Shown: positions 2,737 through 20,430, counted from the stretch's first letter. The stretch: 64,000 nt of DNA from Patescibacteria group bacterium (GCA_041661745.1 JBAZTR010000002.1:68368-132367); one strand, 5' to 3'. Numbers and translations: made by a program. Notes: a model not told the origin generated them from the sequence alone.

Positions 2737-3450
2737 TTAAGGCTTTATGGCCACCAAAATCTTTTCCACGTATTCCTTAACCTTTAATTGCTCGACTAGA
2801 GGATTCTCAAGTTCCAAAGCGATAAACGGAGGAACTTGCGATAAAGAAACATTTTTTAAATAATCAAAATCAGTAAGATTGTTAAACCAATGATAGGAAC
2901 AACGGAAACTCTGTTCGCGTTCGTCGAAATGAGGTTCTTCCCTTACTGCACTAATATGACCACAACCGATCGGAAAACGGGAATAAATTTCTTGCCACTG
3001 TTTAAAGGTGTCGGGAAAAAATCTACGGGCGTCCTCCACGTGTGAAAAATCCAGACATAAACCAGCAAAACCCTTGAGGTCTTCTTCGGTAATCGGGGCG
3101 AAAGTATTTTCGATATAAATCTGCTGGTAATATTTTGTCAGGTCGTGTTCCATGCCAAACTCAGACAAAAGATGAAAATTAAAAGCTTTTGTTTGCCAAC
3201 GCTTGATTAAATATTCCAACTCCTCTGGTCGCATATCCGAACGAATATGAACAAAAGGAATTTCTTCGAGTTTAGTATTTTCTAAAGCATGAAAAAGTTC
3301 TTGGCGTTCTTCAAAGCCTATAGTCGTGACGAAAACCGCAACTTGTTTTAAACCAAGTTGATCAATTTCCTTAACTTTTTCCCGCCAGCCACCCAAACCA
3401 TCCTTACTCAATAAAGTCGAGGTTACGGTGGGCAAAATCAAACTTTTCAT
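2737..3450 (-). CDS. Xylose isomerase-like TIM-barrel (AP endonuclease 2 family) sugar-phosphate isomerase/epimerase-like protein; function uncertain
   Basis: Start chosen at internal ATG (MKSLILPTV), 1 nt after the upstream M50 protease stop. Motifs GLCLDFSH and CGHISAV resemble the metal-binding His motifs of the xylose-isomerase-like fold. Confidence 0.35.
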   Translation of the reverse strand: MKSLILPTVTSTLLSKDGLGGWREKVKEIDQLGLKQVAVFVTTIGFEERQELFHALENTKLEEIPFVHIRSDMRPEELEYLIKRWQTKAFNFHLLSEFGMEHDLTKYYQQIYIENTFAPITEEDLKGFAGLCLDFSHVEDARRFFPDTFKQWQEIYSRFPIGCGHISAVREEPHFDEREQSFRCSYHWFNNLTDFDYLKNVSLSQVPPFIALELENPLVEQLKVKEYVEKILVAIKP

Positions 3451-3451
3451 A

Positions 3452-4114
3452 CTAGAAAAACATGGTCTGAATCGGCCCAAGCAGAAAACCGGCCGTGTGA
3501 TTTACCAAAAAATCCAAAAAGAAAAAAATGTTTACGCCAGCAAAAGAGAGAAAAATCAAAAGCATTAGTAAAAGTTGACCGCGTTGCTCAATCATTTGGC
3601 CAAGCTGTGGGTTATGAAGGAAAGTGTCAAAAATAGCATGCCAAATTTTTGAACCATCAAGTGGTGGCAAAGGAATTAGATTAAAAAATAACAAACCAAG
3701 GTTCAAAATAATAACCAGGTATAAAAAGAAAACCAAAAGATTATTAACGGCGATTAACTCGGCCCCAAGTAGTGCCTGTAAAATAAAGGCAGAAAATGCC
3801 GCCAGTAAAAAATTAGAAGCTGGACCGGCCAAAGCCACCCAAACACCGTCCCACCTAGTGTTCTTTAAATTATAAGGATTAAACGGCACAGGCTTGGCCC
3901 AACCATAACCAATTAAAAGAAAAGAAATAAAACCAAACAAATCAAGGTGTGACAAGGGATTCAAAGTCAGACGACCGGCCGCTTCAGCCGTGTGGTCGCC
4001 GCGAAGGTTGGCAACCATGGCATGTGAAAATTCATGGATAGTAAGGGCTGATAAGACCGCCACCACCCAAGCGACAGCAAGAAAAGGGTCAGAAAAAAGG
4101 AGTTGGAAGAACAT
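3452..4114 (-). CDS. M50 family (site-2 protease-like) zinc metalloprotease, multi-TM
   Basis: HEFSHAM (HExxH) motif inside a hydrophobic protein. Several predicted TM helices. Confidence 0.7.
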   Translation of the reverse strand: MFFQLLFSDPFLAVAWVVAVLSALTIHEFSHAMVANLRGDHTAEAAGRLTLNPLSHLDLFGFISFLLIGYGWAKPVPFNPYNLKNTRWDGVWVALAGPASNFLLAAFSAFILQALLGAELIAVNNLLVFFLYLVIILNLGLLFFNLIPLPPLDGSKIWHAIFDTFLHNPQLGQMIEQRGQLLLMLLIFLSFAGVNIFFFLDFLVNHTAGFLLGPIQTMFF

Positions 4115-4117
4115 ATT

Positions 4118-4232
4118 TGAGAAAGTAGGAAGTAGTGAGTAGTGAGTAGTTTGGCCGGCATTATAATAGCATTACTTGCCTTTTTTAGTCGAATAAGTTA
4201 TCATAACGACGCTAAAAACTACTTACTACCTA
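4118..4232. repeat. Divergent-promoter region with mirrored CTAC-type leaders for the M50 protease gene (-) and rpmB (+)
   Basis: Plus strand has GTAG-rich gtaggaagtagtgagtagtgagtag (4118-4146), which is a CTAC-rich leader on the protease mRNA. CTAC-rich ctacttactacc (4214-4229) lies directly before the rpmB ATG. Confidence 0.55.
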
Positions 4233-4234
4233 AT

Positions 4235-4474
4235 ATGTCTAAATTCTGTGACGCTTGTGGCCGCGGCGCTTTAACCATTAACTTGCGCAGTAAAAGCGAA
4301 AACGCTGTTAAATCCAAGCAACAAGTAAATTTGCAAACCGCCAAAATTGACGGGAAACGCGTTAGTATCTGCACCCGTTGCATGAAGACCATGGCCAAAA
4401 AGCCGGGTTTGATTAAAATCACCCCACGCAAAGTTCGTTTGGCCGGACGAAAGACCAAGCAATCCGCAAAGTAA
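4235..4474 (+). CDS. rpmB: 50S ribosomal protein L28
   Basis: Internal ATG at 4235. MSKFCDACGRGALTINLRSKSENAVKSKQQVNLQ... matches the L28 pattern (C..C..N.RSH..N.TKR...NLQ). Confidence 0.7.
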   Translation: MSKFCDACGRGALTINLRSKSENAVKSKQQVNLQTAKIDGKRVSICTRCMKTMAKKPGLIKITPRKVRLAGRKTKQSAK

Positions 4475-4486
4475 TTAAAGTTAAAA

Positions 4487-4522
4487 AATCCGATCGTGGA
4501 AAACGATCGGATTTTTGTTTTA
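4487..4522. terminator. Bidirectional intrinsic terminator between rpmB (+) and murA (-)
   Basis: aaaaaTCCGATCGTggaaaACGATCGGAtttttgtttt: perfect 10-bp stem flanked by A and T runs. Confidence 0.7.
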
Positions 4523-5830
4523 CTATTCTTCAACTCTTTTAATATTCGCTCCCAGCCCTTTCAGCTTTTCTTCCAAACGTTCGTAACCGCGATCAAGATG
4601 TTCGATACCAGTTAAGACCGACTCACCTTCGGCCACTAAGGCGGCTAAGACCAAAGCCAAGCCAGCGCGAATGTCGGGCACAACAATTGGCGCGGCTTTT
4701 AACGGTGTTGGTCCGTTAATAACCGCAGCGTGTTTGTAGTTCATGCCTTTGAAGCGGCAATTTATTTCGCCGAGACAATTTGGGAACAAGGTGATGTCAG
4801 CTCCCATAATATTCAGAGTCTCGGTATATCCGAAACGTTCTTCATAAACTGTTTCATGAACAACACTGGTTCCTTGAGCTTGTGTTAAAACGACAGTGAA
4901 CGGCTGTTGCCAATCGGTCATAAAACCGGGATGAGTATCGGTTTCAAGTTCAATGCCGTGTAAACCATTATCGCGTTTAAACAAAATGCCATCTTCCCTG
5001 ACTTCGTAAGTGCCACCAATTTTTCTGACAGCGTTTAAAAAAGTTATCAAGTGATCGTGTACCGCGCCTTTGATAAAAATTTCACCATTGGTGGCCATGG
5101 CCATACAAGCGTAACTGACGGCTTCGTTTCGATCGGGCATAACCCGAGCCTGACAACCATTTAGTTTCTCAACACCGATAATTTCAAATTGACGACCGAC
5201 CCCGACCTCAATTATGGCCCCCATTTTTTGGAGCATCTTAACCAGTTCCATAATCTCTGGTTCGATAGCGGCGTTTCTAATAACCGTGCGCCCCTTGGCC
5301 AGAACACCGGCCAAAATAACTGTCTCGGTCGCGCCAACCGAAGGAAACGGCAGTTCAATTAATGTGCCTTTCAGACGACCTTCGACCGAGGCACGATAAC
5401 CATCAGGAAGCTCCTCGATTTTCGCGCCCATTTTCTTTAAGGCATCAAGGTGAAAGTTAACCGGCCGCGGCCCAATTTTATCGCCACCGGCCACCGGCAC
5501 AAAAGCTTCGCCAACGCGATGAAGCAACGGAGCGATAGATAAAACAGAGATACGATTTTGGCGTGACAAACCGGTCACGGACGGCGAGGAAATTTTAGCC
5601 GCGTTAACCTCGACTGTATGTTCGGCCACCCATGTGGTGGTGGCACCAATGGCGTGAAGAATTTCTTCAGTAATCTGGACCTCGGCATGACGCGGCAGAT
5701 TTTCCAAAATCACCGGCTCATCGGTTAAAAGAGCGGCGATCATCATTTTAGACGAAGCGTTTTTTGCTCCAGAAAGTTCCACGGTTCCCTTTAAAGGTTT
5801 ACCGCCAATAATATGATAAGTTGATGTCAT
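4523..5830 (-). CDS. murA: UDP-N-acetylglucosamine 1-carboxyvinyltransferase
   Basis: MTSTYHIIGGKPLKGTVELSGAKNA... has full-length similarity to MurA. Start at internal Met, 13 codons into the track ORF. Confidence 0.9.
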   Translation of the reverse strand: MTSTYHIIGGKPLKGTVELSGAKNASSKMMIAALLTDEPVILENLPRHAEVQITEEILHAIGATTTWVAEHTVEVNAAKISSPSVTGLSRQNRISVLSIAPLLHRVGEAFVPVAGGDKIGPRPVNFHLDALKKMGAKIEELPDGYRASVEGRLKGTLIELPFPSVGATETVILAGVLAKGRTVIRNAAIEPEIMELVKMLQKMGAIIEVGVGRQFEIIGVEKLNGCQARVMPDRNEAVSYACMAMATNGEIFIKGAVHDHLITFLNAVRKIGGTYEVREDGILFKRDNGLHGIELETDTHPGFMTDWQQPFTVVLTQAQGTSVVHETVYEERFGYTETLNIMGADITLFPNCLGEINCRFKGMNYKHAAVINGPTPLKAAPIVVPDIRAGLALVLAALVAEGESVLTGIEHLDRGYERLEEKLKGLGANIKRVEE

Positions 5831-5868
5831 AGGAAGTAGCTTGTAGGAGGTAGCTTGTAGATTAGACA
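5826..5868. repeat. CTAC-type leader repeat upstream of murA (single arm)
   Basis: Plus strand ggaagtagcttgtaggaggtagcttgtagattagacac. Reverse complement ctacaagctacctcctacaagctacttcc directly precedes the murA ATG. Confidence 0.5.
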
Positions 5869-6452
5869 CTAATATTTTTTAGAAAATCTTTTAATTTGGA
5901 GAAAGCACGACCACGATGACTTAAGGTGTGTTTTTCTTCACGCGGCATTTCGGCAAAAGTTTGTTCGTGGTCAGCCGGAATAAAAATTTGATCGTAAGGT
6001 AATTTGGGGTTGGCGATACCGCGACGTTCTTTAATGACTCGGCCGGGCGAGAGTCCTTCAAAAACATATTCACGACCATCCGGCATAACCAAGGCCACCG
6101 CACAATGAAAAGCCGCGCCAAGATTTTCTTCCGGGATATCTTTTATTTTATTCAAAGTAAAATCAACGAGGTCGTTCCCTTCACCGGCCCAACGCGCCGT
6201 GTAAATACCAGGAGCACCATTAAGAGCCTCGAGACAAATTCCAGAGTCGTCGGCCACCGCACAGGTGCCACTTTTGGAACAAACGAACCGGGCTTTCTTT
6301 AAAGCATTCTCTTTAAAAGTTAAACCGTCCTCGATTGGGTCTTCGGTAACTCCAGCTTCGTCGGCACTTGAGACTTCGATGTTTAATTCATCCAGAAGTT
6401 CTTGCATCTCTTTTATTTTTCCGGGGTTATGGGTGGCGAAAATCAATTTCAT
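5862..6452 (-). CDS. rdgB: Non-canonical purine NTP pyrophosphatase (RdgB/HAM1 family)
   Basis: MKLIFATHNPGKIKEM...SHRGRA is typical of Ham1/RdgB. Confidence 0.85.
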   Translation of the reverse strand: MKLIFATHNPGKIKEMQELLDELNIEVSSADEAGVTEDPIEDGLTFKENALKKARFVCSKSGTCAVADDSGICLEALNGAPGIYTARWAGEGNDLVDFTLNKIKDIPEENLGAAFHCAVALVMPDGREYVFEGLSPGRVIKERRGIANPKLPYDQIFIPADHEQTFAEMPREEKHTLSHRGRAFSKLKDFLKNISV

Positions 6453-6475
6453 AATTGCTAATCCACCTTAGCAGA

Positions 6476-6507
6476 AAAAAGGGCGTCTTGGCAACCACGC
6501 CCCTTTT
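6476..6507. terminator. Hairpin with flanking A/T runs upstream of rdgB
   Basis: aaaaaAGGGCGtcttggcaaccaCGCCCCtttt. May insulate rdgB from read-through coming from the island to its right. Confidence 0.4.
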
Positions 6508-6547
6508 CATAAAACCCACTTTGGTTTAAAGTAATGGACGCGAAGCT

Positions 6548-6623
6548 CGGGCTATAGCGCAGTTGGTAGCGCGCTTGCATGGGGTGCAAGAGGCCGTGGG
6601 TTCAAGTCCCGCTAGCCCGACCA
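6548..6623 (+). tRNA. tRNA-Pro (anticodon GGG)
   Basis: Cloverleaf parsed by hand: acceptor CGGGCTA/TAGCCCG, D arm GCGC-AGTTGGTA-GCGC, anticodon stem CTTGC/GCAAG with loop ATGGGGT, T arm GTGGG-TTCAAGT-CCCGC, encoded CCA. Confidence 0.85.
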
Positions 6624-6624
6624 A

Positions 6625-6660
6625 AAACACACGAATAAATTTCGCGTGTTTTTATTTTAA
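6625..6660. terminator. Bidirectional intrinsic terminator after tRNA-Pro and after the convergent RelA/SpoT-like gene
   Basis: aaaaACACACGaataaatttCGCGTGTttttatttt. Confidence 0.65.
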
Positions 6661-6701
6661 TAAAAAAACACGACCAGCGAATGGCCGTGAAGAGATCTCT
6701 T

Positions 6702-7799
6702 TTAGTAACGCCGACTGGCCGCGCGAGCTAGAGCAAATTCACGCAGCACCTCGAGGCCATCCTCCCACCGAATGCCGAAGAGCTTCTGTGGATATCGAAC
6801 CTTTAAAAACTCCCCAAGTCGACTGGCTTCATAGACCAGGTGGTGAGTCGGACCCGGCCTAACATTCATAGCGAGATAAACCTCCCACGAAGCCAACTGG
6901 AACTCGAAAGCCTTGGAATGCCAGCGTACTCTTAACCGACGAAGCCCTTTGACACCTGGACCAGAAGAATAATTACTAATACTGGTCCGTTCGTATACAA
7001 CAGCGTTCAGTTGACGCAAGGCTACTTCAAGTCGAGCGATCGTTTCGGAAAAATCACCGGAGACCACGGTGATTCTGATTGCCCGACGATCATCAAGATT
7101 AACACGAAAAACTTCACCCTCTTCAAGACAGTCACGAAACAGTTTCAGGATTATGGCGAAGCGCTCCTTAGGACGATCTTCGAAGTAAATCCTAGCTGCA
7201 CCAAAGTCGCGGCAAGCCAGCGTCAGTTGGTTGGTTTCGTAGACAGCCCTGTCAAAACAGTAACTGAGCTTCTGCTCAGTGGCCGAACTTGAGAAGACCT
7301 CGCTAAACAGGACCTCAACAAGGCTTTGCAAGTCTCGATTGACCCGACGGAACGGATCAAACTTTTCCACCATGGCCAAGGCGATGGATACATCAAGCAA
7401 AACCAACGCTTCGAACGATCGCCGCGGATCCGGCGGGTGGCCACCGAAGTGATTAACGGCTAGATCAATAAGATCGCCGGCGGTATTGGCCAAGCTGACC
7501 CGAGAGTCCAGACCGAGTCGAGAACTAAAGGGGTAAAGAACGCCGTTTTCGATCCCCCTAAAGCCGCTGACGGCAACCGGAATAGCGGCATCGATTTGCT
7601 TTTTGTCTCTTGGTAAGGAACTGAGGATCCAGTCTCGTCTTCTCCCAATGACTTCATCCATTCTAGCGGTTCCTTCTACGACCTTTTGCCAATCGTTAAC
7701 CGAATCAGCAATAAGTTTTCGAAGCCTTTCCACAACACCCTCCTGGGACGAAATAAAAGGAACGCCCACCCATCTTACATGGCGAGCGTTCCTGGTCAA
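6702..7799 (-). CDS. RelA/SpoT-domain (alarmone-synthetase fold) nucleotidyltransferase with an N-terminal extension of about 200 aa; possible toxSAS-like protein
   Basis: C-terminal half carries the synthetase motifs in order: RPKERFAIILK (RxKxxxSxxxK-like), DDRRAIRITVV (DxxGxR), GVKGLRRLRVRW (GYRSLH-like), EFQLAS (EIQIRT-like) and HHLVYE (HxxxYK-like). The gene is visibly GC-richer than neighbours. Alternative TTG start lies 10 nt after the ndk stop. Confidence 0.5.
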   Translation of the reverse strand: MTRNARHVRWVGVPFISSQEGVVERLRKLIADSVNDWQKVVEGTARMDEVIGRRRDWILSSLPRDKKQIDAAIPVAVSGFRGIENGVLYPFSSRLGLDSRVSLANTAGDLIDLAVNHFGGHPPDPRRSFEALVLLDVSIALAMVEKFDPFRRVNRDLQSLVEVLFSEVFSSSATEQKLSYCFDRAVYETNQLTLACRDFGAARIYFEDRPKERFAIILKLFRDCLEEGEVFRVNLDDRRAIRITVVSGDFSETIARLEVALRQLNAVVYERTSISNYSSGPGVKGLRRLRVRWHSKAFEFQLASWEVYLAMNVRPGPTHHLVYEASRLGEFLKVRYPQKLFGIRWEDGLEVLREFALARAASRRY

Positions 7800-7808
7800 G
7801 ATTCCAAA

Positions 7809-8306
7809 TTACTTTTTAATTGTAAACTGCGTGTATAAAGGATTAAAGTCAACCAACTCCTCTGGTTTAAACCAAACAGCAATCTCCGTCTCAGCTTCCT
7901 CCGGACTACCGGAAGCGTGAACCATGTTGAAAACACCAATACCTCGTTCGTCGGCATGAGCAAAAGAAACGTGAGCGTAATCGCCACGGATGGTTCCAGG
8001 CGCGGCTGACTTTGGTTCAGTTGTGCCAACCATTTTACGGGTGACCTCAACCATTTCAACGCCTTCAACAACAATGGCAACAATTGGACCAGAGGTGAGC
8101 ATGTTAATCATGAGCTCGCGAACTTTTTCGCCACGGCGACGGGCCAAATCTTCAGTGTAATGTTTGCTGGCCGTATCTTTCTCTGACACCAAAAGTTTCA
8201 TACCAACAATTTTGGCGCCGACGCGCTCGAAACGTGTGATAATTTCACCGATAATACCGCGCTCTAAAGCGTCGGGTTTCAGAAGGACTAGGGAACGTTG
8301 AATCAT
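7809..8306 (-). CDS. ndk: Nucleoside diphosphate kinase
   Basis: MIQRSLVLLKPDALERGIIGEIITRFE...NMVHASGSPEEA is canonical NDK. Confidence 0.9.
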   Translation of the reverse strand: MIQRSLVLLKPDALERGIIGEIITRFERVGAKIVGMKLLVSEKDTASKHYTEDLARRRGEKVRELMINMLTSGPIVAIVVEGVEMVEVTRKMVGTTEPKSAAPGTIRGDYAHVSFAHADERGIGVFNMVHASGSPEEAETEIAVWFKPEELVDFNPLYTQFTIKK

Positions 8307-8458
8307 ATTTTAGCTTGTAGCTTGTAGCTTGTAGGAGGTAGGTTTTTCCGGCTCCAACAGACAACAAGCCGATTAATTTTCTGCAAAAAGATTAACATTT
8401 TATTTTTAAAAAAGCAATGATTCCTGCCTACAAGCTACTTCCTACAAACTACAAGCTA
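8307..8458. repeat. Long imperfect inverted repeat: GTAG-type arm (8310-8342) and CTAC-type arm (8421-8458) around a ~90 nt spacer, forming the ndk leader
   Basis: Left arm tagcttgtagcttgtagcttgtaggaggtagg. Reverse complement of right arm is tagcttgtagtttgtaggaagtagcttgtaggcagg. On the mRNA strand the CTAC-rich arm ends immediately before the ndk ATG. Confidence 0.6.
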
Positions 8459-9388
8459 AAACGGCAATGGCCGACTCTCCACTATCGGTTCCCCACCGGT
8501 CGAGGTAATTAAAACATCGCCATCGAGATCAGTGCGGAAAATTTTGATGCCACGCGTCTGCAAACGTTCAAGAGTGGCCGGATGTGGATGGCCGTAATCG
8601 TTATCAGTGCCAACCGAAATAATGGCGTAGCGCGGCTTAGCAACTTCAAGGAAACTCCCCGAAGTGGAAGTGACACTGCCATGGTGCGCGACCTTCAAAA
8701 CATCAACCGGTTCGGCCAGGTCGTCAAAAATTTCGTCTTCCTCATCAATCGGAGCATCGCCGGTTAAAAGAATCGAGGTCTCACCATAAGTTAAAAGAAG
8801 AACAACCGAGGCTTCGTTTAAGTTGTCGAGTTTTTTGTTTTGTAAATTGGTGTCTGGGGCGATAATTTCTAACCTCACCCCTGCGCCCCTCTCCTTCGCA
8901 AGGAGAGGGGGAGTTCCCTCTGACACCAAGTCCATCACTGCTCCTTGTCCCTCGGTCAACTCGCGAACACTGTCTTGTAGGTCGTCATAACCAAGCACAC
9001 CCGTCTCATAAATTGTCCCGACATTGTAACGAGACAAAACCTCGGGCAAACCACCTTCGTGATCGGCGTGAGGATGAGTGATAATAACAGCATCAATGGA
9101 ACGGTCCCACGGCAACATGACCTGACCAAGTTTGGTTAAAACCGAACTGTCGGCTCCGGCATCCACCAGAATTTGTTCGCCCTCGGGTGTTTCGATGAAA
9201 ATTGCATCGGCTTGCCCCACGTCAAAAATCCAAACCTTCAATTCTTTATCAAGTTGCATTGTATAAAACATCTGCCAGGTTAAAGCTAAAACCATAGCCA
9301 AGGTCATAAGACCAAGGCCAACCAACTTTTTCCGTTGCGCGGAAAATTTTATTGGTCGAGCGCGAGTTTGGATCGGCGAGCGAGCCAT
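8456..9388 (-). CDS. comEC: ComEC C-terminal part: single TM helix plus metallo-beta-lactamase domain (separate ORF or frameshifted continuation of comEC)
   Basis: MARSPIQTRARPIKF...TM...VWIFDVGQADAIFIE...HPHADHEGG...VAHHGS is the ComEC/Rec2 MBL domain. It overlaps the upstream ComEC N-terminal ORF by about 37 nt in a different frame. It also contains in-frame palindromic element copy A. Confidence 0.7.
   Translation of the reverse strand: MARSPIQTRARPIKFSAQRKKLVGLGLMTLAMVLALTWQMFYTMQLDKELKVWIFDVGQADAIFIETPEGEQILVDAGADSSVLTKLGQVMLPWDRSIDAVIITHPHADHEGGLPEVLSRYNVGTIYETGVLGYDDLQDSVRELTEGQGAVMDLVSEGTPPLLAKERGAGVRLEIIAPDTNLQNKKLDNLNEASVVLLLTYGETSILLTGDAPIDEEDEIFDDLAEPVDVLKVAHHGSVTSTSGSFLEVAKPRYAIISVGTDNDYGHPHPATLERLQTRGIKIFRTDLDGDVLITSTGGEPIVESRPLPF
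8870..8911. repeat. GC-rich palindromic element copy A, in-frame inside the comEC beta-lactamase domain (encodes ...TPPLLAKERGAGVRL...)
   Basis: TAACCTCACCCCtgcgCCCCTCTCCTTcgcAAGGAGAGGGGg. Same core as copies B and C. Antisense to the host gene and read in a different frame from copy B. Confidence 0.75.
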
Positions 9389-10686
9389 AATAAAAAGATA
9401 AAGACAACAAAAGCCAAAACTGCTGACAAAATTTTTGGTAAAACAATTGAAGCAAAAAAAACTGAACCAAACCAAGTCACTAAAAGCAAAACAAACGAAC
9501 TCAAAGCCGAAGCCGGAACAGCGACAATCGCCCCGAGCGTAACGGAAAGCCAACCAACACCGAGAGCTACCCCACCAAGAAGCATGAGATATGGAATCCA
9601 CGGCAAAATAAGGAGGTTAACTAAAGGCGCGATAAGTGAAGTTGAACCAAAGTGCCAGAGCATTATCGGCAGGGTGGCCGAAATGGCGGCAAGCGAAGCA
9701 GCACACGATTCACGCAAACCAAAAACTTCAGGAATAAAATTTACTCGCTCGCCAAACCAGTTACCTAGTAGCATCAAACCGGCTGTCGCCCCAAAAGAAA
9801 GTTGAAAACCAACATCGGTAATCAAATGCGGATTAAAAATCATCATGAGGAAAGCCGAAAGAAGAAGGAGATTGCCGGCATGCGGGGTGCGACCAAGCCA
9901 GGTGCCGAGCATAACCGTCGAGGCCATAATGCCAGCGCGAATAACCGGCGGCGTCGCCCCGGCCAAAAAGATATAGAGAATAACCAGTAAGCCGGAAACA
10001 ATAATCGCTCGTCGTCGACCAAGGGTACTCCGCATGAGAAGAACTAAAAGAAGCTGAGAAAAAATAGAAACGTTATAACCCGAAGCGGCCATGACATGTG
10101 AAAGTCCGGTGTGTGAAAAATCACCCTTCATGTCTTGGCTTAACCCCTGACTGCCGCCAAAAAGAATTCCGCTCATAAACGCGGCATGTGGCTCGGGGAA
10201 AATTTTTCCCAGCCGTTCAATCATAGCCAGACGAAGTGATAAAAGAGCATCGCTAATATTCCACGCAGCCTTCCCTTGCACCACTAACTCCTCTGGGCGA
10301 TAACACACGGCGTAAACTCCACGACTTTCAAGATAAGCGGCGTAGTCAAAATCATTAAACGGTTCGGGCACGACCAGTTCACAACGAAATTCCAAAATAT
10401 CGCCAGTAGAAAAGTTCTGCCACTTAGGTAAACGTGCCAAAATTTTTCCGTTCTGTTCTTCGCCGCCAACCTGAATATTTTTTAGGGTCACTTCTTGCGC
10501 CGAATCGCGCTGAACAATCTCCCCGGCAATTGTACCGGTCATGACCGTTTCTTTATTAACAAAATCACGAACCGTGGGGCTCGTGATTTCATCAAAAAAT
10601 AATGCTTTAGCCGACAAACCAACTATCAAAACCAGTAGGATGACAAAGAGGGATCGCGACGGTGACTTATCGAGTCCCCACACCAT
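9349..10686 (-). CDS. comEC: ComEC N-terminal part: DUF4131-like region plus polytopic competence channel domain
   Basis: About 10 predicted TM helices. Region ...GLSHVMAASGYNVSI... is typical of the ComEC competence domain. Its start overlaps the ugd stop by 20 nt. Confidence 0.75.
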   Translation of the reverse strand: MVWGLDKSPSRSLFVILLVLIVGLSAKALFFDEITSPTVRDFVNKETVMTGTIAGEIVQRDSAQEVTLKNIQVGGEEQNGKILARLPKWQNFSTGDILEFRCELVVPEPFNDFDYAAYLESRGVYAVCYRPEELVVQGKAAWNISDALLSLRLAMIERLGKIFPEPHAAFMSGILFGGSQGLSQDMKGDFSHTGLSHVMAASGYNVSIFSQLLLVLLMRSTLGRRRAIIVSGLLVILYIFLAGATPPVIRAGIMASTVMLGTWLGRTPHAGNLLLLSAFLMMIFNPHLITDVGFQLSFGATAGLMLLGNWFGERVNFIPEVFGLRESCAASLAAISATLPIMLWHFGSTSLIAPLVNLLILPWIPYLMLLGGVALGVGWLSVTLGAIVAVPASALSSFVLLLVTWFGSVFFASIVLPKILSAVLAFVVFIFLLWLARRSKLALDQ

Positions 10687-11980
10687 AATAGGTGAAGCCT
10701 AAATCTTTCAAATGTTGGTCGACAAGTAAATTGCGTCCATCAAAAATAACCGGATTCAGCATGCGCTCACGAACGGCGTCAAAAGAGACCTCGCGAAACT
10801 CCGGCCAGTCGGTTAGGACAAGCAAAGCTTCAGCTCCCTCAACCGCATCAACCGCTGTTGGAGCAAAAAGAACGCGATCGCTCAACACTTCTTTGGCTCG
10901 TTCCGCGGCCATGGGGTCATAAACAATAACTTCGGCCCCATTGGCAAACAATCGTTTAACAATATCAATGGCCGCTGACTCGCGGATATCATCAGTACCA
11001 CCTTTATAAGATAACCCCCACACAGCCAAAGTTCGCCCCTTCAAACCACCGAGCTTTTCTTCCACGCGACGAACAAAAATTTCTCGTTGGTGATTATTAA
11101 CTTCGATCACGGCTGACAAAAGTTTGAAGTCATAACCGTTGCGTCCGGCGATTTGGTGAAGAGCCGAAACGTCTTTAGGAAAACAAGAACCACCGTACCC
11201 TACTCCGGCTTTCAAAAAGTGCGGACCAATGCGCGGATCAAGACCAATGGAACGAACAATTTCTGTAACATCAGCTCCGACCAAATCAGCCAAATTAGCA
11301 ATTTCATTAATGAAAGAAATTTTAGTGGCCAGAAAAGCGTTGGCTGCGTATTTGGCCAACTCGGCGTTTTCAATAGTGGTCATTACGCGCGGCGCGACAA
11401 TTCCTTCGTGCAAACGCTCGAGCAAACTTGCGGCCAAAGCGTCATTGGTACCAATAACGATGCGCGACGGATTCATGAAATCACGCAAGGCCGTGCCTTC
11501 GGCCAAAAATTCCGGAACCGAGGCCGCCAACACCAAATCAGCCAACTCGCTGTGCTCGGCCGTGCGCATGCCTTCGCGCACGCGAGCCAAAACTTTTTTA
11601 TTAGTGCCAACCGGCACAGTACTTTTGGTAACAATTACCGCTTCGTGATCCAAACTTTTTCCAATCTCATCAGCCACGGAAAAAACCGCTGACAAATCCG
11701 CTTCACCACTTAAAAGCGGCGGCGTCCCAACGGCAATCATAATTATTTCAGCTCCGCTGATAACCGAAGCAAGATCAGAAGTAAAAATAATTCGACCGGC
11801 TTCCTGCATTTCCTGCAACAGCTCGTAAAGTCCCGGCTCAAAAAATGGCGGCTCGCCCAAATCAAGTCTGGCAACCTTGGCCGCGTCGCGATCAACACAA
11901 ACCACCCGGTGGCCGAGCTTGGCGTAACCTAAGCCGGAAACCAGGCCAACATATCCGGTACCGATAATAACAATATTCAT
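10667..11980 (-). CDS. ugd: UDP-glucose 6-dehydrogenase (nucleotide-sugar dehydrogenase family)
   Basis: MNIVIIGTGYVGLVSG... N-terminal Rossmann fold, GGSCFPKD catalytic-Cys region. Length 437 aa. Confidence 0.85.
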   Translation of the reverse strand: MNIVIIGTGYVGLVSGLGYAKLGHRVVCVDRDAAKVARLDLGEPPFFEPGLYELLQEMQEAGRIIFTSDLASVISGAEIIMIAVGTPPLLSGEADLSAVFSVADEIGKSLDHEAVIVTKSTVPVGTNKKVLARVREGMRTAEHSELADLVLAASVPEFLAEGTALRDFMNPSRIVIGTNDALAASLLERLHEGIVAPRVMTTIENAELAKYAANAFLATKISFINEIANLADLVGADVTEIVRSIGLDPRIGPHFLKAGVGYGGSCFPKDVSALHQIAGRNGYDFKLLSAVIEVNNHQREIFVRRVEEKLGGLKGRTLAVWGLSYKGGTDDIRESAAIDIVKRLFANGAEVIVYDPMAAERAKEVLSDRVLFAPTAVDAVEGAEALLVLTDWPEFREVSFDAVRERMLNPVIFDGRNLLVDQHLKDLGFTYYGVGTR

Positions 11981-12000
11981 ACGAGAGGAATCTTAACAAA

Positions 12001-12045
12001 GGGGCGAAAGGGGTACAAGGGGTGGAAGGGGTAAAACGGGAATAA
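12001..12045. repeat. Periodic G-rich repeat (AAGGGGT x4, about 10-nt period); equals a CCCCTT-repeat leader on the ugd mRNA strand
   Basis: ggggcgaaaggggtacaaggggtggaaggggtaaaacggg. Reverse complement lies 25-65 nt upstream of the ugd ATG. Confidence 0.6.
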
Positions 12046-12068
12046 AAAAAGGCCTCCTAGTGGAGGCG
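12041..12068 (-). terminator. Intrinsic terminator after the GC-rich hypothetical gene
   Basis: Minus-strand reading: hairpin GCCTCC-tagt-GGAGGC followed by a T7 run. Confidence 0.55.
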
Positions 12069-12090
12069 AGACAGGGTGTGGAAGTTGGGG

Positions 12091-12588
12091 CTAGCCCGTG
12101 ATGCCGAGCCGCCGGGCATCGGCGATGGCTTGTGCCCGCCGCTCCTCCTCGCTCTGGGCGAGGCGTGCCGCCTGCTCCCGTTGCTGCTTCACCTCGACCC
12201 AGGCCGCGGCGACGGCATTCTCGTTCTCCTGGACGTAGAGAAGGGCTCTCTGCCACTCCTCGGACCTGTCGAACCCCTTGACCATGTACTTGTTGTCGCC
12301 AGACCGGTAGACGGAAAGACAGATCTTGTTACCGAGATGGATGGTGACTTCTTGTCCACCCATGCCGGTCATGCCGTCCTCGAAGAAGAACGAGAGCCCG
12401 CCGAAGTCGAGAAGCTCGCTCTTCGTGTGGTAACGGTACGTGTATTCCTCACTGGAAACGACTCGTCCGCGTCTCTCGATGAGGTCAGGAACGAAGGTGA
12501 AGATGCCGTCGAGGAAATTCTGCCGCTTAGCGACCATTTCCTCGATGGCAGCCGTGGGAAGATCGGAAGCAGAGCGGGATGCGGGCAT
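12091..12588 (-). CDS. Hypothetical protein with C-terminal coiled-coil; GC-rich cassette
   Basis: Protein-like composition on the minus strand; the overlapping plus-strand ORF is L/G/R-rich antisense noise. Bracketed by terminators at 12041-12068 and 12653-12682. Very GC-rich by eye. Confidence 0.4.
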   Translation of the reverse strand: MPASRSASDLPTAAIEEMVAKRQNFLDGIFTFVPDLIERRGRVVSSEEYTYRYHTKSELLDFGGLSFFFEDGMTGMGGQEVTIHLGNKICLSVYRSGDNKYMVKGFDRSEEWQRALLYVQENENAVAAAWVEVKQQREQAARLAQSEEERRAQAIADARRLGITG

Positions 12589-12652
12589 AGTGTCTCCCAG
12601 AGGCTAGGGGTGAAAGGCCGGCTCGACTTTACCCAAAAAATAAAATTAAGTC

Positions 12653-12682
12653 AAAAAAACCGACCAAGCGGCCGGTTTTTTC
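12653..12682. terminator. Bidirectional intrinsic terminator downstream of the serine protease gene
   Basis: aaaaaaaCCGACCaagcGGCCGGtttttt. Confidence 0.55.
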
Positions 12683-12696
12683 AAACTCGTAATTTT

Positions 12697-13962
12697 CTAA
12701 AAAAGACTGGAAGGAATTTTTTCCAAATCAGTGTCGGCAATGCCCAGGCTTAAGAATCTCATTATGTCGTAGGCGGCATCGCCATCCTCTAAATAAACCC
12801 GATAACATTTATCCGGGTGAACATACCAAGCTTCGCCGTGTTGTTGAACCTGCAACAAAATTTTTCCTTTTAATTGATTGGCCAAAGAATTTGTCGCACA
12901 AACACTGTTAGCGGTCAAGACTTCGCTTGAACTTTCAATTAAGGGAATCTTGGCCAAGTCAGCATCGGTAATACCCAAACTAAAGTAGCGCATCATAGTG
13001 TAAGCAGCCGCGCCGTCTTCCATGTAATAACGCATGTTGTCTTTAGGGTTAACATACCAAGCTTCACCATTTTGTTCGACTTGAAGCAAAATACGTCCTT
13101 TCATTCTTTCCACCAACGCAGCGTCATATTTGGAGGGATCGTACTCACCGGAAGTGGACACTGTCACCTGCGCTGTTTCGTCTCCGTCGCCGGGCAAGGT
13201 GAAATATTCCGGGTAGTATTCCTCGTCTGTGGCAAAATAATAACAAACTCCGGCTGAGCAAGCCTTATTTCCCCATTCATAAAGGGTCGAATAATCCCGA
13301 GTAAAAGTATCAGCCCCGAAGGCGTCTTCAAAAATTGCGTTAAGATTTTCTATCCAAGTATAAGAATTCAGTTCACCCGAAGCCACCGCAGTGGGGATAC
13401 CAAAATAATTTCCCAAAGCGTCAAAGGCACCACCGCCAGAATTTCCATGTTCAGCCTGGGCGTCAGATTTAATCCAATCGGTACCGTCGAAGCCGGAAAT
13501 AGTTCCGCTAGTGGAGGTAATTGTTGAACCGGCCAAACCGGCATCAGGGTAACCAAGCAGGGTTATATCCTCACCCAAAATCATGGAGTCGGCGTTTCCC
13601 CATTCAGCACTCGAAGGAAAAATATATGGCTCGCCATATTCATCGGTAGCCTCAAGAAAGGCATAATCAAAATAATTATCGTATCTAACAATAGTTGGCG
13701 TTAACCAAAAAGCCACTTCCGGAATTTCATAGGGACTTATCGCGTAGCCGCCATAACAAGTTTCCTCTGTTTCGCCATAAGAATTTTGGACAACGTGAGC
13801 ATTAGTTAAAATCACGTTATCAAAAATCACTACTCCGGACCCGGTGTATTCGGGACACTCGATGTAGACCACGTTCTGGACATTGTCGGTAATCGAACCA
13901 GTGGCCGAGGCCATGGCCGGAAAAAGGAGAAATGCCCCAAGCAGAAAAAATATTCTTTTCAT
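12697..13962 (-). CDS. Secreted trypsin-like (S1) serine protease with two C-terminal tandem repeats of about 57 aa
   Basis: Signal peptide MKRIFFLLGAFLLFPAMASA. TNAHV (His) and GNSGG (Ser) motifs. Repeated KG(R/K)ILLQV(E/Q)Q(N/H)GEAWYV...MR(Y/F)(F/L)SLGI.D.DL.KIP modules. Confidence 0.7.
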   Translation of the reverse strand: MKRIFFLLGAFLLFPAMASATGSITDNVQNVVYIECPEYTGSGVVIFDNVILTNAHVVQNSYGETEETCYGGYAISPYEIPEVAFWLTPTIVRYDNYFDYAFLEATDEYGEPYIFPSSAEWGNADSMILGEDITLLGYPDAGLAGSTITSTSGTISGFDGTDWIKSDAQAEHGNSGGGAFDALGNYFGIPTAVASGELNSYTWIENLNAIFEDAFGADTFTRDYSTLYEWGNKACSAGVCYYFATDEEYYPEYFTLPGDGDETAQVTVSTSGEYDPSKYDAALVERMKGRILLQVEQNGEAWYVNPKDNMRYYMEDGAAAYTMMRYFSLGITDADLAKIPLIESSSEVLTANSVCATNSLANQLKGKILLQVQQHGEAWYVHPDKCYRVYLEDGDAAYDIMRFLSLGIADTDLEKIPSSLF

Positions 13963-14016
13963 ATTTATTTGGATTAAAAACCGCACTTATTATATCACGA
14001 CACTTAATTAAATTAA

Positions 14017-14041
14017 GAGACAGGGTGATTAACCCTGTCTC
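14017..14041 (-). terminator. Hairpin downstream of leuS
   Basis: GAGACAGGGTgattaACCCTGTCTC: perfect 10-bp stem. The flanking U-run is weak. Confidence 0.45.
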
Positions 14042-14050
14042 AACACTGTT

Positions 14051-16930: not shown

Positions 16931-16960
16931 ATTTACGCTTGGAAGTGTAGCAAATTACCT

Positions 16961-17075
16961 TGAGGTTTGGAAGGGTTATGAAGGGCTCCGAAGGGTTGTA
17001 AAGGGTTATTGAACTATATTCTTTAATATAAATCTTCCAAAGCCCTTCCCAGCCCTTCAAGACACTTCATAAAAA
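16961..17075. repeat. Inverted repeat built from periodic GAAGGG / CCCTTC units in the leuS leader
   Basis: Left arm ggaagggttatgaagggctccgaagggttgtaaagggtta, loop of about 30 nt, right arm tccaaagcccttcccagcccttcaagacac. On the mRNA strand the CCCTTC-rich arm precedes the leuS ATG by about 35 nt. Confidence 0.6.
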
Positions 17076-17138
17076 AATTCCCACCATATTTCAAACAGGT
17101 CACCACCTTAAACTAACAAACAAAATTAACAAGATTAT

Positions 17139-17168
17139 AAAAAACGACGGACAAGCCGTCGTTTTTTT
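17139..17168. terminator. Bidirectional intrinsic terminator after gdhA
   Basis: aaaaaACGACGGacaaGCCGTCGTttttttt. Confidence 0.7.
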
Positions 17169-17178
17169 CTAAAATAAA

Positions 17179-18405
17179 TTATTTCATGGCCGCTTCGATT
17201 CTTTCCATAGCCACGACAAAGGCCGCTTCGCGGACTGTACAGTTCAAAAAAGTTTTTTTATCCCATACCGCTGTAAGAGCAGCTTGCATGGTTTCACCTA
17301 ATTTAGCTTTCACTTGCTCTTCGGTCCATTTTTCATCCTTCATGTTTTGTGCCCACTCAAAATAACTAACAGTAACACCACCGGCGTTGGCCAGAATATC
17401 TGGAACAACCGGAATACCACGGGCCGCAAAAATTTCGTCAGCTTCTGGGGTAGTCGGACCGTTGGCAACTTCAAGAATCGCTTTAGCTTTAACGCGTGGG
17501 GCGTTGTCAGCCAAAAATTGATTCTCCAAAGCCGCTGGCACCAACACTTCGCACTCAAGCTCAAGCAATTCAGCATTAGAAATATTCTGAGCACCAGGAA
17601 AATTTTGAACCGAACCGGTTTCTTTCTTGTGAGCGTCAACGGCAGTTACATCCAAACCTTCTGGGTTATAAATTCCACCACGTGAATCGGACAAGCCCAC
17701 GACTTTATAACCGTTCTTAAAAAAGAGATTGGCCATTTGGTGTCCAGCATTGCCAAAACCTTGGACAACAATGCGACAAGCTTCCTTACTAATATTCAAA
17801 CGCTCGCGCAAACCTTCAAAAACAAAGTAACCGCCATCACCCGTGGCCGTGCCACGACCAAGCGAACCGCCGGCTTCAATGGTTTTCCCAGTAATAACAG
17901 CGAGCGGATGCGGATGATTGGTGGTTTTTTTAAATTCATCGACAATCCAATCCATTTCGCGCGGGGTGGTGTTAACATCCGGGGCTGGCACGTCTTTTTC
18001 CGGACCAATCACATCGGCTAAAGCCTTAGCCCAACCGCGCGTTAAACGTTCGAGTTCGCCAACCGAAAGAGTTTTTGGATCAACGGTAATTCCCCCCTTG
18101 CCGCCACCCATAGGAATTCCAACCACGGCACATTTCATGGACATCCAAAGAGCTAAAGCTCGCACCTCATCAATATTTGTTTCGTGATGATAACGGATAC
18201 CGCCTTTGTACGGCCCACGAGCGTTGTTGTGTTGAACGCGGTAGCCGGTAAAAATCTTTTGTGTACCATCATCCATTTTTATAGGAATCGCAATCTGAAT
18301 TTCCCGTTGTGGCTGACGCAGTTGGGCCAAAAAATCAGGGTTAAAAGACTGAAATTTGGCGGCCCGATCAAGCTGTTTCAAAGCGCTCTCGAATGGATTA
18401 GGCAT
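17179..18405 (-). CDS. gdhA: NAD(P)-dependent glutamate dehydrogenase
   Basis: KGGIRYH, GVPMGGGKGG and NAGGV motifs. Start at internal Met MPNPFESALKQ. Confidence 0.85.
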   Translation of the reverse strand: MPNPFESALKQLDRAAKFQSFNPDFLAQLRQPQREIQIAIPIKMDDGTQKIFTGYRVQHNNARGPYKGGIRYHHETNIDEVRALALWMSMKCAVVGIPMGGGKGGITVDPKTLSVGELERLTRGWAKALADVIGPEKDVPAPDVNTTPREMDWIVDEFKKTTNHPHPLAVITGKTIEAGGSLGRGTATGDGGYFVFEGLRERLNISKEACRIVVQGFGNAGHQMANLFFKNGYKVVGLSDSRGGIYNPEGLDVTAVDAHKKETGSVQNFPGAQNISNAELLELECEVLVPAALENQFLADNAPRVKAKAILEVANGPTTPEADEIFAARGIPVVPDILANAGGVTVSYFEWAQNMKDEKWTEEQVKAKLGETMQAALTAVWDKKTFLNCTVREAAFVVAMERIEAAMK

Positions 18406-18562
18406 AGTGCAAAAAATTATTTTTTTCCTAGGACGAATATAGATTAATACTTTGGTAAGTGGAGGGCAACAAAAAAAGTGTATAACCATTGACAACAAGG
18501 AAATTTTATGTTAAAAATAACCGCCTCTTTGAGTCCACCCCGCAAATTCTCCCGGAGGAGAA

Positions 18563-18811
18563 ATGCTAGGAAAGTTCCTTGGCAACGAATTCGCCACGCC
18601 GGTCACGGCAGTCACTCTCATGGTTGCGGCCATGCTCATCTACGCCGGAATGGCCTGCCGACTGCACGTTGGCACGCCGGCCTTCATCTGGTTGGCCCTG
18701 GTGTTGGCCTTCCTGGTGGAGGCCAACCTCGAGTGCCTCCCGGCCCGGTGGATGACGAAGGGTTTTGCCGTGGCCCTCGCCGGCGCCGCGGCCGTCTGCG
18801 TCATCTTCTGA
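18563..18811 (+). CDS. Small GC-rich membrane protein with 2 predicted TM helices; hypothetical
   Basis: GGAGGAG Shine-Dalgarno 6 nt upstream of the ATG. Two hydrophobic helices. Overlapping longer ORFs on both strands are R/G/P-rich noise. Immediately followed by palindromic element copy F plus a T-run. Confidence 0.35.
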   Translation: MLGKFLGNEFATPVTAVTLMVAAMLIYAGMACRLHVGTPAFIWLALVLAFLVEANLECLPARWMTKGFAVALAGAAAVCVIF

Positions 18812-18813
18812 GT

Positions 18814-18860
18814 CTTCCTCCCCAACCCGCCCCTCCTCAACTCTCGAGGAGCGGTTTTTT
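18814..18860 (+). repeat. GC-rich palindromic element copy F, acting as terminator stem after the small membrane ORF
   Basis: CTTCCTCCCCAACCCGCCCCTCCTCaactctcGAGGAGCGG + TTTTTTT. Aligns with copy C sense sequence CCTCACCCCCCAACCCCTCTCCTTacgAAGGAGAGGGG. Confidence 0.6.
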
Positions 18861-18870
18861 TAATCAAAAA

Positions 18871-18892
18871 AACAACGGTCGAAACCGTCGTT
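18871..18892 (-). terminator. trxB terminator hairpin
   Basis: Minus-strand reading AACGACGGtttcgaCCGTTGTT followed by a T-run. Confidence 0.5.
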
Positions 18893-18894
18893 TT

Positions 18895-18950
18895 CACCTC
18901 TCCCCTTCTCCCCTCTCCTTCGTAAGGAGAGGGGTTGGGGGGTGAGGTTA
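18895..18950 (-). repeat. GC-rich palindromic element copy C at the 3' end of trxB; its TAA terminus is the trxB stop codon
   Basis: Minus-strand reading TAACCTCACCCCccaaCCCCTCTCCTTacgAAGGAGAGGGGagaaggggagaggtga. Copies C and F are tail-to-tail around two convergent terminators. Confidence 0.75.
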
Positions 18951-19871: not shown

Positions 19872-19877
19872 AAATTA

Positions 19878-20426: not shown

Positions 20427-20430
20427 AAAA

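Follow-up and report, generated by a model that had tools for sequence, protein, structure and literature searches.

Intergenic heptad-class repeat arrays before ndk and other genes of a Parcubacteria-like genome

Upstream of the ndk gene of an uncultured Patescibacteria group bacterium, two complementary arrays of short tandem repeats face each other across positions 8307-8458 of a 64,000-nucleotide stretch of DNA (GCA_041661745.1 JBAZTR010000002.1:68368-132367), here referred to as the window. Do such arrays serve as a signal for translation initiation, do they form a selected RNA hairpin, or do they correspond to repeats of a type described elsewhere? An earlier note on the window had described a recurrent leader architecture, in which a purine-rich arm, a loop and a pyrimidine-rich arm precede start codons lacking a Shine-Dalgarno (SD) sequence. 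The analysis reported here showed the elements to be genome-specific families of intergenic short tandem repeats, confined to non-coding DNA. Their kind is already known, namely, that of heptamer-class intergenic simple sequence repeat (SSR) arrays, including inverted pairs, now seen in a genome of the Candidate Phyla Radiation (CPR), and they do not represent a new, conserved signal for translation. What the elements are is well supported; what they do is inferred.

Members of the CPR/Patescibacteria are uncultured and have minimal genomes, and the interaction between SD and anti-SD sequences has been lost in part of the Parcubacteria. The host considered here is a tiny, uncultured, Parcubacteria-like member of this group represented by a metagenome-assembled genome (MAG). 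Homologues of ndk at 64-88% identity all come from Parcubacteria, Yanofskybacteria, Uhrbacteria or similar MAGs, and genome and metagenome scans found no relative with an ndk of more than 88% identity. The European Nucleotide Archive contig ERZ27249449 k141_528855 (151.7 kb) is identical to the window except for one base. The source samples are ERZ27249449, SRR18595301 and SRR6484324.

Paired heptad arrays and their distribution in the window

Genes around the ndk region lie mostly on the minus strand. The region itself is organized as follows:

7809-8306, minus strand: ndk, start codon ATG 8306
8308-8342, minus strand: ndk-proximal array, reading TTTTAG CTTGTAG CTTGTAG CTTGTAG GAGGTAGG on the plus strand; the CUAC-heptad 3' arm in the mRNA sense
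8343-8426, minus strand: AT-rich spacer ('loop') of 84 nt between the arms, with a small inner stem CGGCT..AGCCG
8427-8461, minus strand: ndk-distal array; the GUAG-heptad 5' arm in the minus-strand sense
8456-9325, minus strand: lactamase-B part of ComEC, stop codon TAG 8456-8458

The intergenic region (8307-8455) is bounded by two arms of 35 nt each (8308-8342 and 8427-8461) that lie 84 nt apart, are 80% complementary and both consist of tandem heptads with a constant GTAG core. In the mRNA sense, the 3' arm reads CCUACCUC CUACAAG CUACAAG CUACAAG CUAAAAU and stops 1 nt short of the AUG, while the 5' arm reads UUUUAG CUUGUAG UUUGUAG GAAGUAG CUUGUAGG. Tandem Repeats Finder (TRF) described TAGCTTG x3.4 (period 7, 100% identity) at 8311-8334. 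The stop codon of the ComEC lactamase-B part is the first TAG of the distal array, and because TAG recurs there every 7 nt, all three frames are closed.

When the RNA of this region was folded, the minimum free energy was -51.7 kcal/mol in the sense direction (z -4.3) and -48.5 kcal/mol in the antisense direction (z -4.9). The inverted-repeat score was 40, and none of 3,708 dinucleotide-shuffled intergenic regions reached 36. Mismatches between the arms are swaps of the entire 3-nt spacer (CTT vs GAA/GAG), with GTAG retained and with no compensation. The arms are different permutations of one set of unit variants. An array upstream of murA shares 78% over 40 nt with the ndk distal arm, the two being as alike as the ndk arms are mutually. 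The anatomy of the hairpin argues for repeat dynamics rather than for a refined RNA structure.

The same region contains a 32-codon open reading frame (ORF) on the plus strand (8417-8512) that runs from the ndk loop through the distal arm, antisense to the 3' end of the ComEC part, and is preceded by a promoter-like TTAACA-18-AATGAT. This ORF is probably spurious.

Across the window, (GTAGNNN)3 with no more than one mismatch gave 14 matches (seven arrays in five intergenic regions) where 0.05 would be expected, and every match was intergenic. Three to four further sites hold a second type, (AAGGG-N4-5)n, with AAGGG-N5 x3 yielding seven matches against 0.19 expected. The first family has a 7-nt unit in which the GTAG/CTAC core is fixed and the 3-nt spacer varies, and the second a 9-10-nt unit with an AAGGG/CCCTT core. 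Arrays of both comprise three to five units each, occupy at least nine intergenic regions and frequently appear as two in inverted orientation. Several hallmarks of heptameric or short tandemly repeated repetitive (STRR) sequences are seen, i.e., a head-to-tail unit of 6-9 nt in at least three copies, over-representation in non-coding DNA and a unit common to several dispersed loci. Besides ndk, TRF found period-7 arrays at 4131-4150, 5830-5860 and 20871-20894. The remaining arrays, arms and related tracts are:

4124-4150, minus strand: M50 array, (GTAGNNN)4 on the plus strand; G-free CUAC leader of the M50 protease gene
4212-4229, plus strand: rpmB CTAC array; short rpmB leader and inverted partner of 4139-4152
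5829-5861, minus strand: one-armed CUAC array of murA; the entire 31-nt spacer from the Ham1 stop codon to the murA ATG, homologous to the ndk distal arm
11998-12040, minus strand: one-armed ugd array, (AAAGGGGNN)x4.8 on the plus strand; CCCCUU leader with a G-quadruplex (G4) motif on the template strand
16970-17013, minus strand: leuS-proximal arm, (GAAGGGNNNN)x4 on the plus strand; CCCUUC in the mRNA sense, ending ~40 nt before the ATG
17035-17072, minus strand: leuS-distal arm, complementary to 16970-17013
20427-20482, minus strand: trxA-HisPhos spacer, a C-run tract with a GC hairpin and a G4 motif on the plus strand
20811-20847, minus strand: trxA-proximal arm, CCUAC-type when read as mRNA, with its end 11 nt short of ATG 20800
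20867-20895, minus strand: trxA-distal arm, (CTACATA)x3.4 on the plus strand, beginning 12 nt past the infB stop codon
29054-29095, minus strand: one-armed queH array, TTTCCTCCCC x4.2 on the plus strand; purine/G-rich in the queH sense

The claim that long inverted repeats are formed at ndk, trxA, leuS and a divergent region was borne out to the extent that the arrays, along with three or four hairpins, were confirmed and lie far above chance. The trxA hairpin has nested arms (20814-20847 and 20867-20892; z -4.6) and that of leuS a z of -3.2. The divergent region between the M50 protease gene and rpmB (4115-4234), previously read at 4118-4232 as a long inverted repeat, does hold a short one (14-nt arms, 93% complementary, z -2.8, weaker than the other hairpins), yet each of its arms is part of a different leader. 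The murA (5829-5860) and ugd arrays have no partner arm (z ~0), and that of ugd lies downstream of a canonical terminator (12052-12067). The queH array runs over the queH stop codon (29075) and precedes no start codon. In the trxA-HisPhos spacer, an SD-like GAGGGAG is present.

Familiar structured elements were also sought. A scan for intrinsic terminators (GC-rich stem, 3-8-nt loop, 3' U-tract) returned canonical sites (12052-12067, 17143-17160 and others) and none of the array hairpins, which have loops of 19-84 nt and no U-tract, with true terminators standing elsewhere in the same intergenic regions; the assignment of the hairpins as intrinsic terminators was hence rejected. Among the structured RNA families of Rfam 15 (T-box, r-protein leaders and riboswitches included), only tRNAs were matched at the gathering score, and with E up to 1 over 3400-21400, no family was found at any array, one sub-threshold sroD match falling elsewhere. 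Binding sites of the HutP/TRAP type are NAG repeats, those of HutP being UAG triplets with 4-nt spacers. UAG-N4 spacing is present in the 5' arms, and no HutP or MtrB domain was found among the annotated genes of the window.

Start codons, leaders and candidate factors

The genes that bear on the leaders, together with two that encode candidate factors, are:

3452-4114, minus strand: M50 protease gene, ATG 4114
4235-4474, plus strand: rpmB, ATG 4235
4523-5830, minus strand: murA, ATG 5830
5862-6452, minus strand: Ham1, stop codon 5862-5864
10667-11980, minus strand: ugd
14051-16930, minus strand: leuS, ATG 16930
20483-20800, minus strand: trxA, ATG 20800
20908-22929, minus strand: infB
29948-30637, minus strand: RNase III gene (Ribonuclease_3 plus dsrm), candidate trans-factor for long hairpins, a putative role
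35969-37129, plus strand: gene for bS1, with four S1 domains; candidate factor that may assist initiation without an SD on G-poor leaders, a putative role

The absence of an SD sequence upstream of ndk, trxA, leuS, ugd, murA, rpmB and the M50 protease gene was confirmed, with anti-SD duplex energies of -0.4 to +1.9 kcal/mol, whereas two control genes gave -12.1 and -7.8. Such absence extends genome-wide. The mean energy in the window was -2.1 kcal/mol upstream of starts vs -2.9 at internal control sites, and in close relatives (850 genes) -2.55 vs -3.48. By contrast, Saccharibacteria-like loci in the same data set were SD-enriched (-4.16 vs -2.92). Since the SD sequence is unused across the genome, the repeat tracts are no substitute for a signal found at the other genes. 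According to Tsurumaki et al. (2022, PMC9297842), no more than 48% of 16S genes from Parcubacteria have a detectable anti-SD motif, and the bS1 proteins of the CPR have three to four domains. Both RNase III and a four-domain bS1, the two factors named in the earlier note, are encoded within the window.

The description of the tracts as pyrimidine-rich does not hold for ndk (47% pyrimidine) or rpmB (49%); the trait common to the leaders is an excess of C over G, with G at 4-11%. In the window, about eight of nine arrays have more C than G on the sense strand ahead of starts, or more G than C past stops, the exception being the trxA-HisPhos tract. CTAC is the most enriched 4-mer at -40 to -1 (21 occurrences vs 3.3, p 5e-11), although it is concentrated in 5-8 of 59 genes.

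Apart from the arrays, starts in the window show a strong SD-independent context. Position -1 is T in 83% of them (44% in close relatives), and G drops to ~10% at -1 to -5.

The proposal that the folded leader sequesters the initiation region was considered by calculating mean unpaired probabilities at -18 to +6. It applies to ndk only, where the value was 0.20 for the full hairpin and rose to 0.65 when just the 3' arm was included; with both arms, the starts of trxA (0.66) and leuS (0.52) remain open. The one-arm leaders of the M50 protease gene, rpmB and trxA reached 0.83-0.93 vs 0.51 +/- 0.15 over the genes of the window, while those of ndk (0.65), leuS (0.52), murA (0.55) and ugd (0.58) lie near that mean, within about one standard deviation. 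An unstructured pyrimidine/A-rich tract before an SD-less start, as expected of S1-dependent enhancers, is found here in sequence and predicted folding.

Two other routes to initiation were rejected. Leaderless mRNAs do not apply, as the TAAAAT that immediately adjoins the ATG is too near for a -10 box. Pairing of CUCCUAC with 16S rRNA could be drawn, given its complementarity to GUAGGAG in helix 45 of the 16S of a relative, yet was dismissed because GUAGGAG forms the stem of a hairpin that is conserved, and the SD-like GGAG already accounts for the match.

Promoter-like hexamers were located relative to the arms. The leuS loop holds the sigma-70-like TTGGAA-16-TATAGT (17040->17013), with a putative transcription start site (TSS), and sigma-70-like hexamers for the M50 protease gene and rpmB sit between the two arrays (4163-4204). 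At trxA, TTGAAA-18-GATAAT (20936->20907) precedes the whole hairpin. The ndk loop has only weak promoter-like hexamers.

The start of rpmB at GTG 4142 was replaced by ATG 4235. More generally, longest-ORF gene calls extend through the arrays. The public rpmB call begins at GTG 4142 (110 aa), with the L28 domain starting only at residue 36, and murA is likewise over-extended to GTG 5869 (regions 4142-4234 and 5831-5869), these N-termini being inflated because the arrays contain no in-frame stops. This serves as a warning for gene callers, since starts can be over-extended through arrays at sites of the murA or rpmB type.

Turnover among relatives and the explanations considered

To place the arrays in context, ~113 kb of intergenic DNA from close relatives was compared with shuffled sequence:

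Period 7: 30 arrays observed, 2.6 in shuffles
Period 8: 33 observed, 5.4 in shuffles
Periods 14 and 16: 16 observed, 0.8 in shuffles
Period 9: 8 observed, 6.0 in shuffles; not enriched
Period 11: 4 observed, 3.2 in shuffles; not enriched

Period-7 and period-8 arrays are therein 6-12-fold over shuffles, and period-7 arrays are ~7.6 times denser in intergenic DNA than in coding sequences, where multiples of 3 dominate. Relatives reuse units of their own at several loci per genome, for instance, AATTACG/AATTCGT in L146, AAATTTG/ATTTCAA in L033 and GATAGCC in L043. Intergenic regions contain an array in 14.4% of cases when the flanking genes are co-directional, 13.9% when they are convergent and 12.5% when they are divergent, and in 31 of 130 array-bearing regions (24%), the array is an arm of an inverted repeat scoring at least 24, vs ~0.5% in shuffles. 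The arms of relatives commonly span from a stop codon to 2-10 nt before the next start. The polarity of periodic pairs (purine-then-pyrimidine vs the reverse, ~11 vs 4) was not significant. Fast-evolving arrays of 7-8-nt units are carried by 12-14% of Parcubacteria-like intergenic regions, a quarter of them as inverted pairs.

In 108 of the relatives' arrays (period 7, 8, 14 or 16), units with TAG/CTA made up 36% vs 18% expected and those with TAA/TTA 52% vs 30%, while TGA/TCA was not raised relative to random intergenic windows; in this comparison, the arrays are not mutually independent and the ORF-based definition of intergenic DNA may introduce bias. Stops in units of 7- or 8-nt period fall in all three frames.

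Conservation of the leader in orthologous positions, set beforehand as a test of the signal, failed. The closest ndk orthologues, those of L001 and L083 (88% amino acid identity), carry a CCCCTT-type tract in place of CTACAAG, and the ndk leaders of further relatives carry CCTTTAG, ATTTGAA, AATAAGC and others. A dedicated SD-replacing initiation signal, whereby CUAC/CCCUU repeats would be bound sequence-specifically by bS1 or another oligomeric RNA-binding protein that recruits the 30S subunit, draws on arrays that adjoin start codons, the whole Ham1-murA spacer being array, on CTAC ranking first among 4-mers before starts, and on a core that is kept as spacers vary. The consistent orientation inside the window, the presence of a bS1 gene and an analogous proposal for TAACTGA in Beggiatoa agree with it as well. 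Still, we judge such a signal to be unlikely: arrays precede only 5-9 of ~59 genes while array-free genes likewise lack an SD, one array (29054-29095) stands at the 3' end of a gene, orthologous leaders bear different units, and in relatives, arrays are as frequent in convergent as in co-directional regions and show no orientation bias. The lineage-specific initiation signal that the earlier note had put forward as one possibility was not supported, given the differing orthologous units, the genome-wide disuse of the SD sequence and the equal frequency of relatives' arrays in convergent regions.

A broader version would have the CUAC-heptad/CCCUU arrays of SD-less Parcubacteria act as cis-elements of a lineage-specific initiation system, with an oligomeric factor (bS1 or other) reading the 4-nt core at 7-nt spacing and the upstream arm acting as an anti-leader; this we hold to be improbable. 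In that scheme, translation of the downstream cistron would be possible only on transcripts from its own promoter, on RNA already cut by RNase III, or once a ribosome that terminates at the stop codon within the 5' arm has opened the foot of the stem. This third route would amount to stop-start coupling across the hairpin.

Comparison of L001 and L083 (~96% identical) bears on the hairpins. Downstream of ndk, the two strains alike carry a canonical terminator and a (GTAAAAN)n array. L083 contains, 109 nt further on, a perfect 29-nt reverse complement of its own irregular array, and L001 has an unrelated CCCTTA-type array where L083 has this complementary arm. Alignment of L001 7079-7270 with L083 753-942 showed a block of ~55 nt to be replaced, with a TTTAC array (the perfect complement of the upstream array) facing a CCCTTA array, and an 18-nt tandem duplication also to differ. 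These differences, which include insertions or deletions of units, point to a recent local inverted duplication and block replacement, and the absence of a whole arm from one of two strains that are 96% identical implies that the hairpin is dispensable on short time scales. Furthermore, for array-armed hairpins in co-directional regions of the window and relatives (n=24), the sense strand was the more stable in 10 cases and the antisense strand in 12. For other hairpins, mostly terminators (n=119), the sense strand prevailed (69 vs 46, p 0.03).

Could paired arrays constitute a selected family of RNA hairpins, serving as RNase III processing sites, mRNA stabilizers or translational occluders in polycistronic transcripts? 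The z values of -3.2 to -4.9, the pairing of 24% of array-bearing regions against 0.5% by chance, arms that extend from stop codon to start codon, the RNase III gene in the window, the predicted occlusion of the ndk start and the precedent of hmw1A, in which an SSR is an arm of a long 5' untranslated region (5'UTR) helix, as also predicted for ndk, trxA and leuS, would all fit. However, both strands fold equally well with no sense-strand bias, spacer mismatches are uncompensated, the L083 arm is missing from L001, pairs are found in divergent regions too, promoter-like sites in loops would leave many transcripts without the 5' arm, and the trxA and leuS starts are not occluded. We therefore regard selection for the hairpin as unlikely, albeit the least so of the alternatives weighed.

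G4 motifs (at least four tracts of three or more Gs, loops of up to 7 nt) were predicted by motif at 12001-12031, 16973-17005 (within the leuS-proximal arm, on the template strand) and 20461-20481. Three of the four G4 motifs of the window are in AAGGG-type arrays, all on the template strand, and no GTAG array contains one. An element acting at the DNA level, with arrays that flank promoters and influence transcription either as iterons bound by proteins or as non-B DNA (G-quadruplex, cruciform), would account for occurrence that is symmetric and independent of gene orientation, for promoter-like hexamers between the arms at leuS and M50/rpmB, and for these template-strand motifs, which recall reports from Xanthomonas and Nostoc. 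It is quite improbable, as GTAG arrays cannot form a G4, the trxA loop is too short to hold a promoter, the intra-operonic position of the murA array leaves no space for one, and no binding protein is known.

Decayed miniature mobile elements of the miniature inverted-repeat transposable element (MITE) or foldback type, with terminal inverted repeats made of subrepeats, were likewise considered, given a dispersed family in one genome, arms that resemble terminal inverted repeats around an AT-rich core and the abrupt block replacement between L001 and L083. Such an origin is hardly credible. No target-site duplication was seen at 8307/8462, the loops share no sequence between copies and are not repeated elsewhere, one-armed arrays are common, the arms differ through shuffling of units, and no transposase is nearby. 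The combination of terminal inverted repeats, target-site duplication and conserved internal sequence that defines MITEs was not found.

The explanation that we favor, with somewhat better than even confidence, is that the arrays are STRR-like intergenic SSRs produced by slippage and local inverted duplication and tolerated as open, G-poor leaders. Arrays would grow and shuffle through slipped-strand mispairing, with arms being mosaics of unit variants, and the second arm would arise by local inverted duplication or template switching, as the perfect reverse complement in L083 suggests. They may be retained at places where the mRNA immediately before a start is the C-rich, G-poor strand, offering an unusually unstructured landing pad for SD-independent, possibly bS1-assisted, initiation, whereas the G/purine-rich strand would trail stop codons, with TAG every 7 nt closing all frames. 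Because promoter-like sites sit between the arms at leuS and M50/rpmB, the transcripts of these genes would carry the open C-rich arm only. In read-through or polycistronic RNA, both arms could pair into an imperfect helix of 30-35 bp that would insulate neighbouring cistrons and be a plausible substrate for RNase III, and which, at ndk, would additionally occlude the start. Paired arrays would form long helices in read-through RNA only, and are probably RNase III-sensitive insulators there.

Several observations weigh against tolerated slippage products. The placement of C-rich strands before starts holds in the window but not across relatives, where orientation relative to starts showed no significant bias (32 pyrimidine-rich vs 25 purine-rich); the rule in the window may stem from common ancestry of a small number of arrays and not from selection. 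No additional GTAG arrays were present in 14 kb more of this contig, and assemblies of this strain from three samples were all identical, with no copy-number polymorphism. The GTAG core is constant over seven arrays with variable spacers, unlike what pure slippage predicts, and this hints at sequence-specific recognition. A promoter scan was not enriched (29 sites vs 23.5 in shuffles), and the TSSs, processing sites and translation effects assigned to the arrays are all ones that we infer from sequence.

Whatever their function, the arrays offer a concrete class of candidate cis-elements for metatranscriptomes and a natural system for the birth of repeats by slippage and inverted duplication. 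If neutral, they are still useful as strain-level markers.

Known repeat systems and other features of the window

The closest likeness is to the heptamer SSRs GGGAATC of Xanthomonas and GGGGA(C/T)T of Nostoc, which are over-represented in intergenic DNA, with the G-rich strand being the non-coding one in the 50 bp that precede ORFs and the coding one at stop codons or past them; each Xanthomonas genome has 70-75 convergent (inverted) pairs (Rehm et al., 2015, PMC4692102). Related heptamers, the cyanobacterial STRRs of Calothrix, are cited in that work. As here, tandem 7-nt units, typically in ~4 copies, are found in non-coding DNA at many dispersed loci, many of which have two convergent arrays forming inverted repeats, and the neighbours are housekeeping rather than contingency genes. 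The location of all G4 motifs of the AAGGG arrays on the template strand matches the strand rule of Rehm et al. On the other hand, the main unit in the window is a 4-nt core with a degenerate spacer (GTAGNNN) and no G4, such motifs being restricted to the 9-10-nt AAGGG class, the host is a CPR bacterium that does not use SD sequences, and units vary between close relatives. In Nostoc, heptamer repeats affect the expression of recF and recO, according to a preprint.

In marine Beggiatoaceae, TAACTGA heptamers adjoin SD-less start codons, and binding of S1, Csp or CsrA has been proposed (MacGregor, 2015, PMC4679880). There, as in the window, two to six heptamers end a few nt before starts, including those of essential genes, each unit has at most one G and contains stop codons, and the intergenic regions in question lack an SD. 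The Beggiatoaceae, however, use one fixed unit genome-wide in a single 'forward' orientation, with one inverted pair, whereas several unit types and frequent inverted pairs are seen here.

In Haemophilus influenzae, RNase III cleaves a long hairpin in the hmw1A 5'UTR, one arm of which is an (ATCTTTC)n array (Rapun-Araiz et al., 2025, PMC12721329). The pairing of a heptamer array with a complementary purine-rich arm is common to both systems. In contrast, hmw1A is a phase-variable adhesin locus with at least 11 repeats and the opposite arm polarity (pyrimidine arm 5'), and its cleavage is experimental, where the window offers sequence and a predicted helix.

Repetitive extragenic palindromes and their mosaics (REP/BIME) are likewise genome-specific, hairpin-forming intergenic repeats between co-transcribed genes. 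They are, though, single conserved palindromes of 20-40 nt, mobilized by RAYT transposases and kept in sequence within a species, with arms that are not tandem arrays. Membership in this class was rejected, the arms here being tandem arrays of variable units rather than a conserved single palindrome.

SD-independent initiation on unstructured leaders is reported for Bacteroidetes (PMC3155529), and loss of the anti-SD for Parcubacteria (PMC9297842). The leaders of the window are similar in having no SD enrichment and in being AT-rich or G-poor and open. In those cases, this is a genome-wide property, whereas repeat arrays are an extra feature of a minority of leaders.

Finally, a number of other features were noted. 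A second repeat family consists of a GC-rich palindrome, CCCCTCTCCTTCG(C/T)AAGGAGAGGGG, with a C-rich flank (six matches vs 0 expected). Copies lie at 8867-8910, 16177-16220 and 18891-18950, with a diverged copy in the trxA-HisPhos spacer at 20427-20482, which is related to this family. Two copies are in frame within ORFs, one in the ComEC lactamase-B part and the other in leuS, just before the conserved VFTTRPDT, and are similar in this respect to the in-frame palindromic insertions of Rickettsia. ComEC itself is split, with metallo-beta-lactamase and Competence/DUF4131 on separate minus-strand ORFs at 8456-9325 and 9349-10686. LeuRS (14051-16930, minus strand) carries a NUDIX domain (PF00293, residues 387-516, E 2.5e-11) inserted after the editing domain, an unusual architecture for a class I aminoacyl-tRNA synthetase. 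A GC-rich block at 50966-53143 (0.558 vs ~0.45), with long overlapping ORFs on both strands, adjoins a switch in gene strand and GC skew at ~53.1 kb and may be a foreign segment or a replication-related switch. Lastly, on the same contig, ~3.2 kb past the right end of the window (L167 17887-18197), the tRNA 3' end GAGTCTCTCCTCGCCCACCA is present twice, ~100 nt apart, which looks like the scar of an element that had integrated at the tRNA gene.

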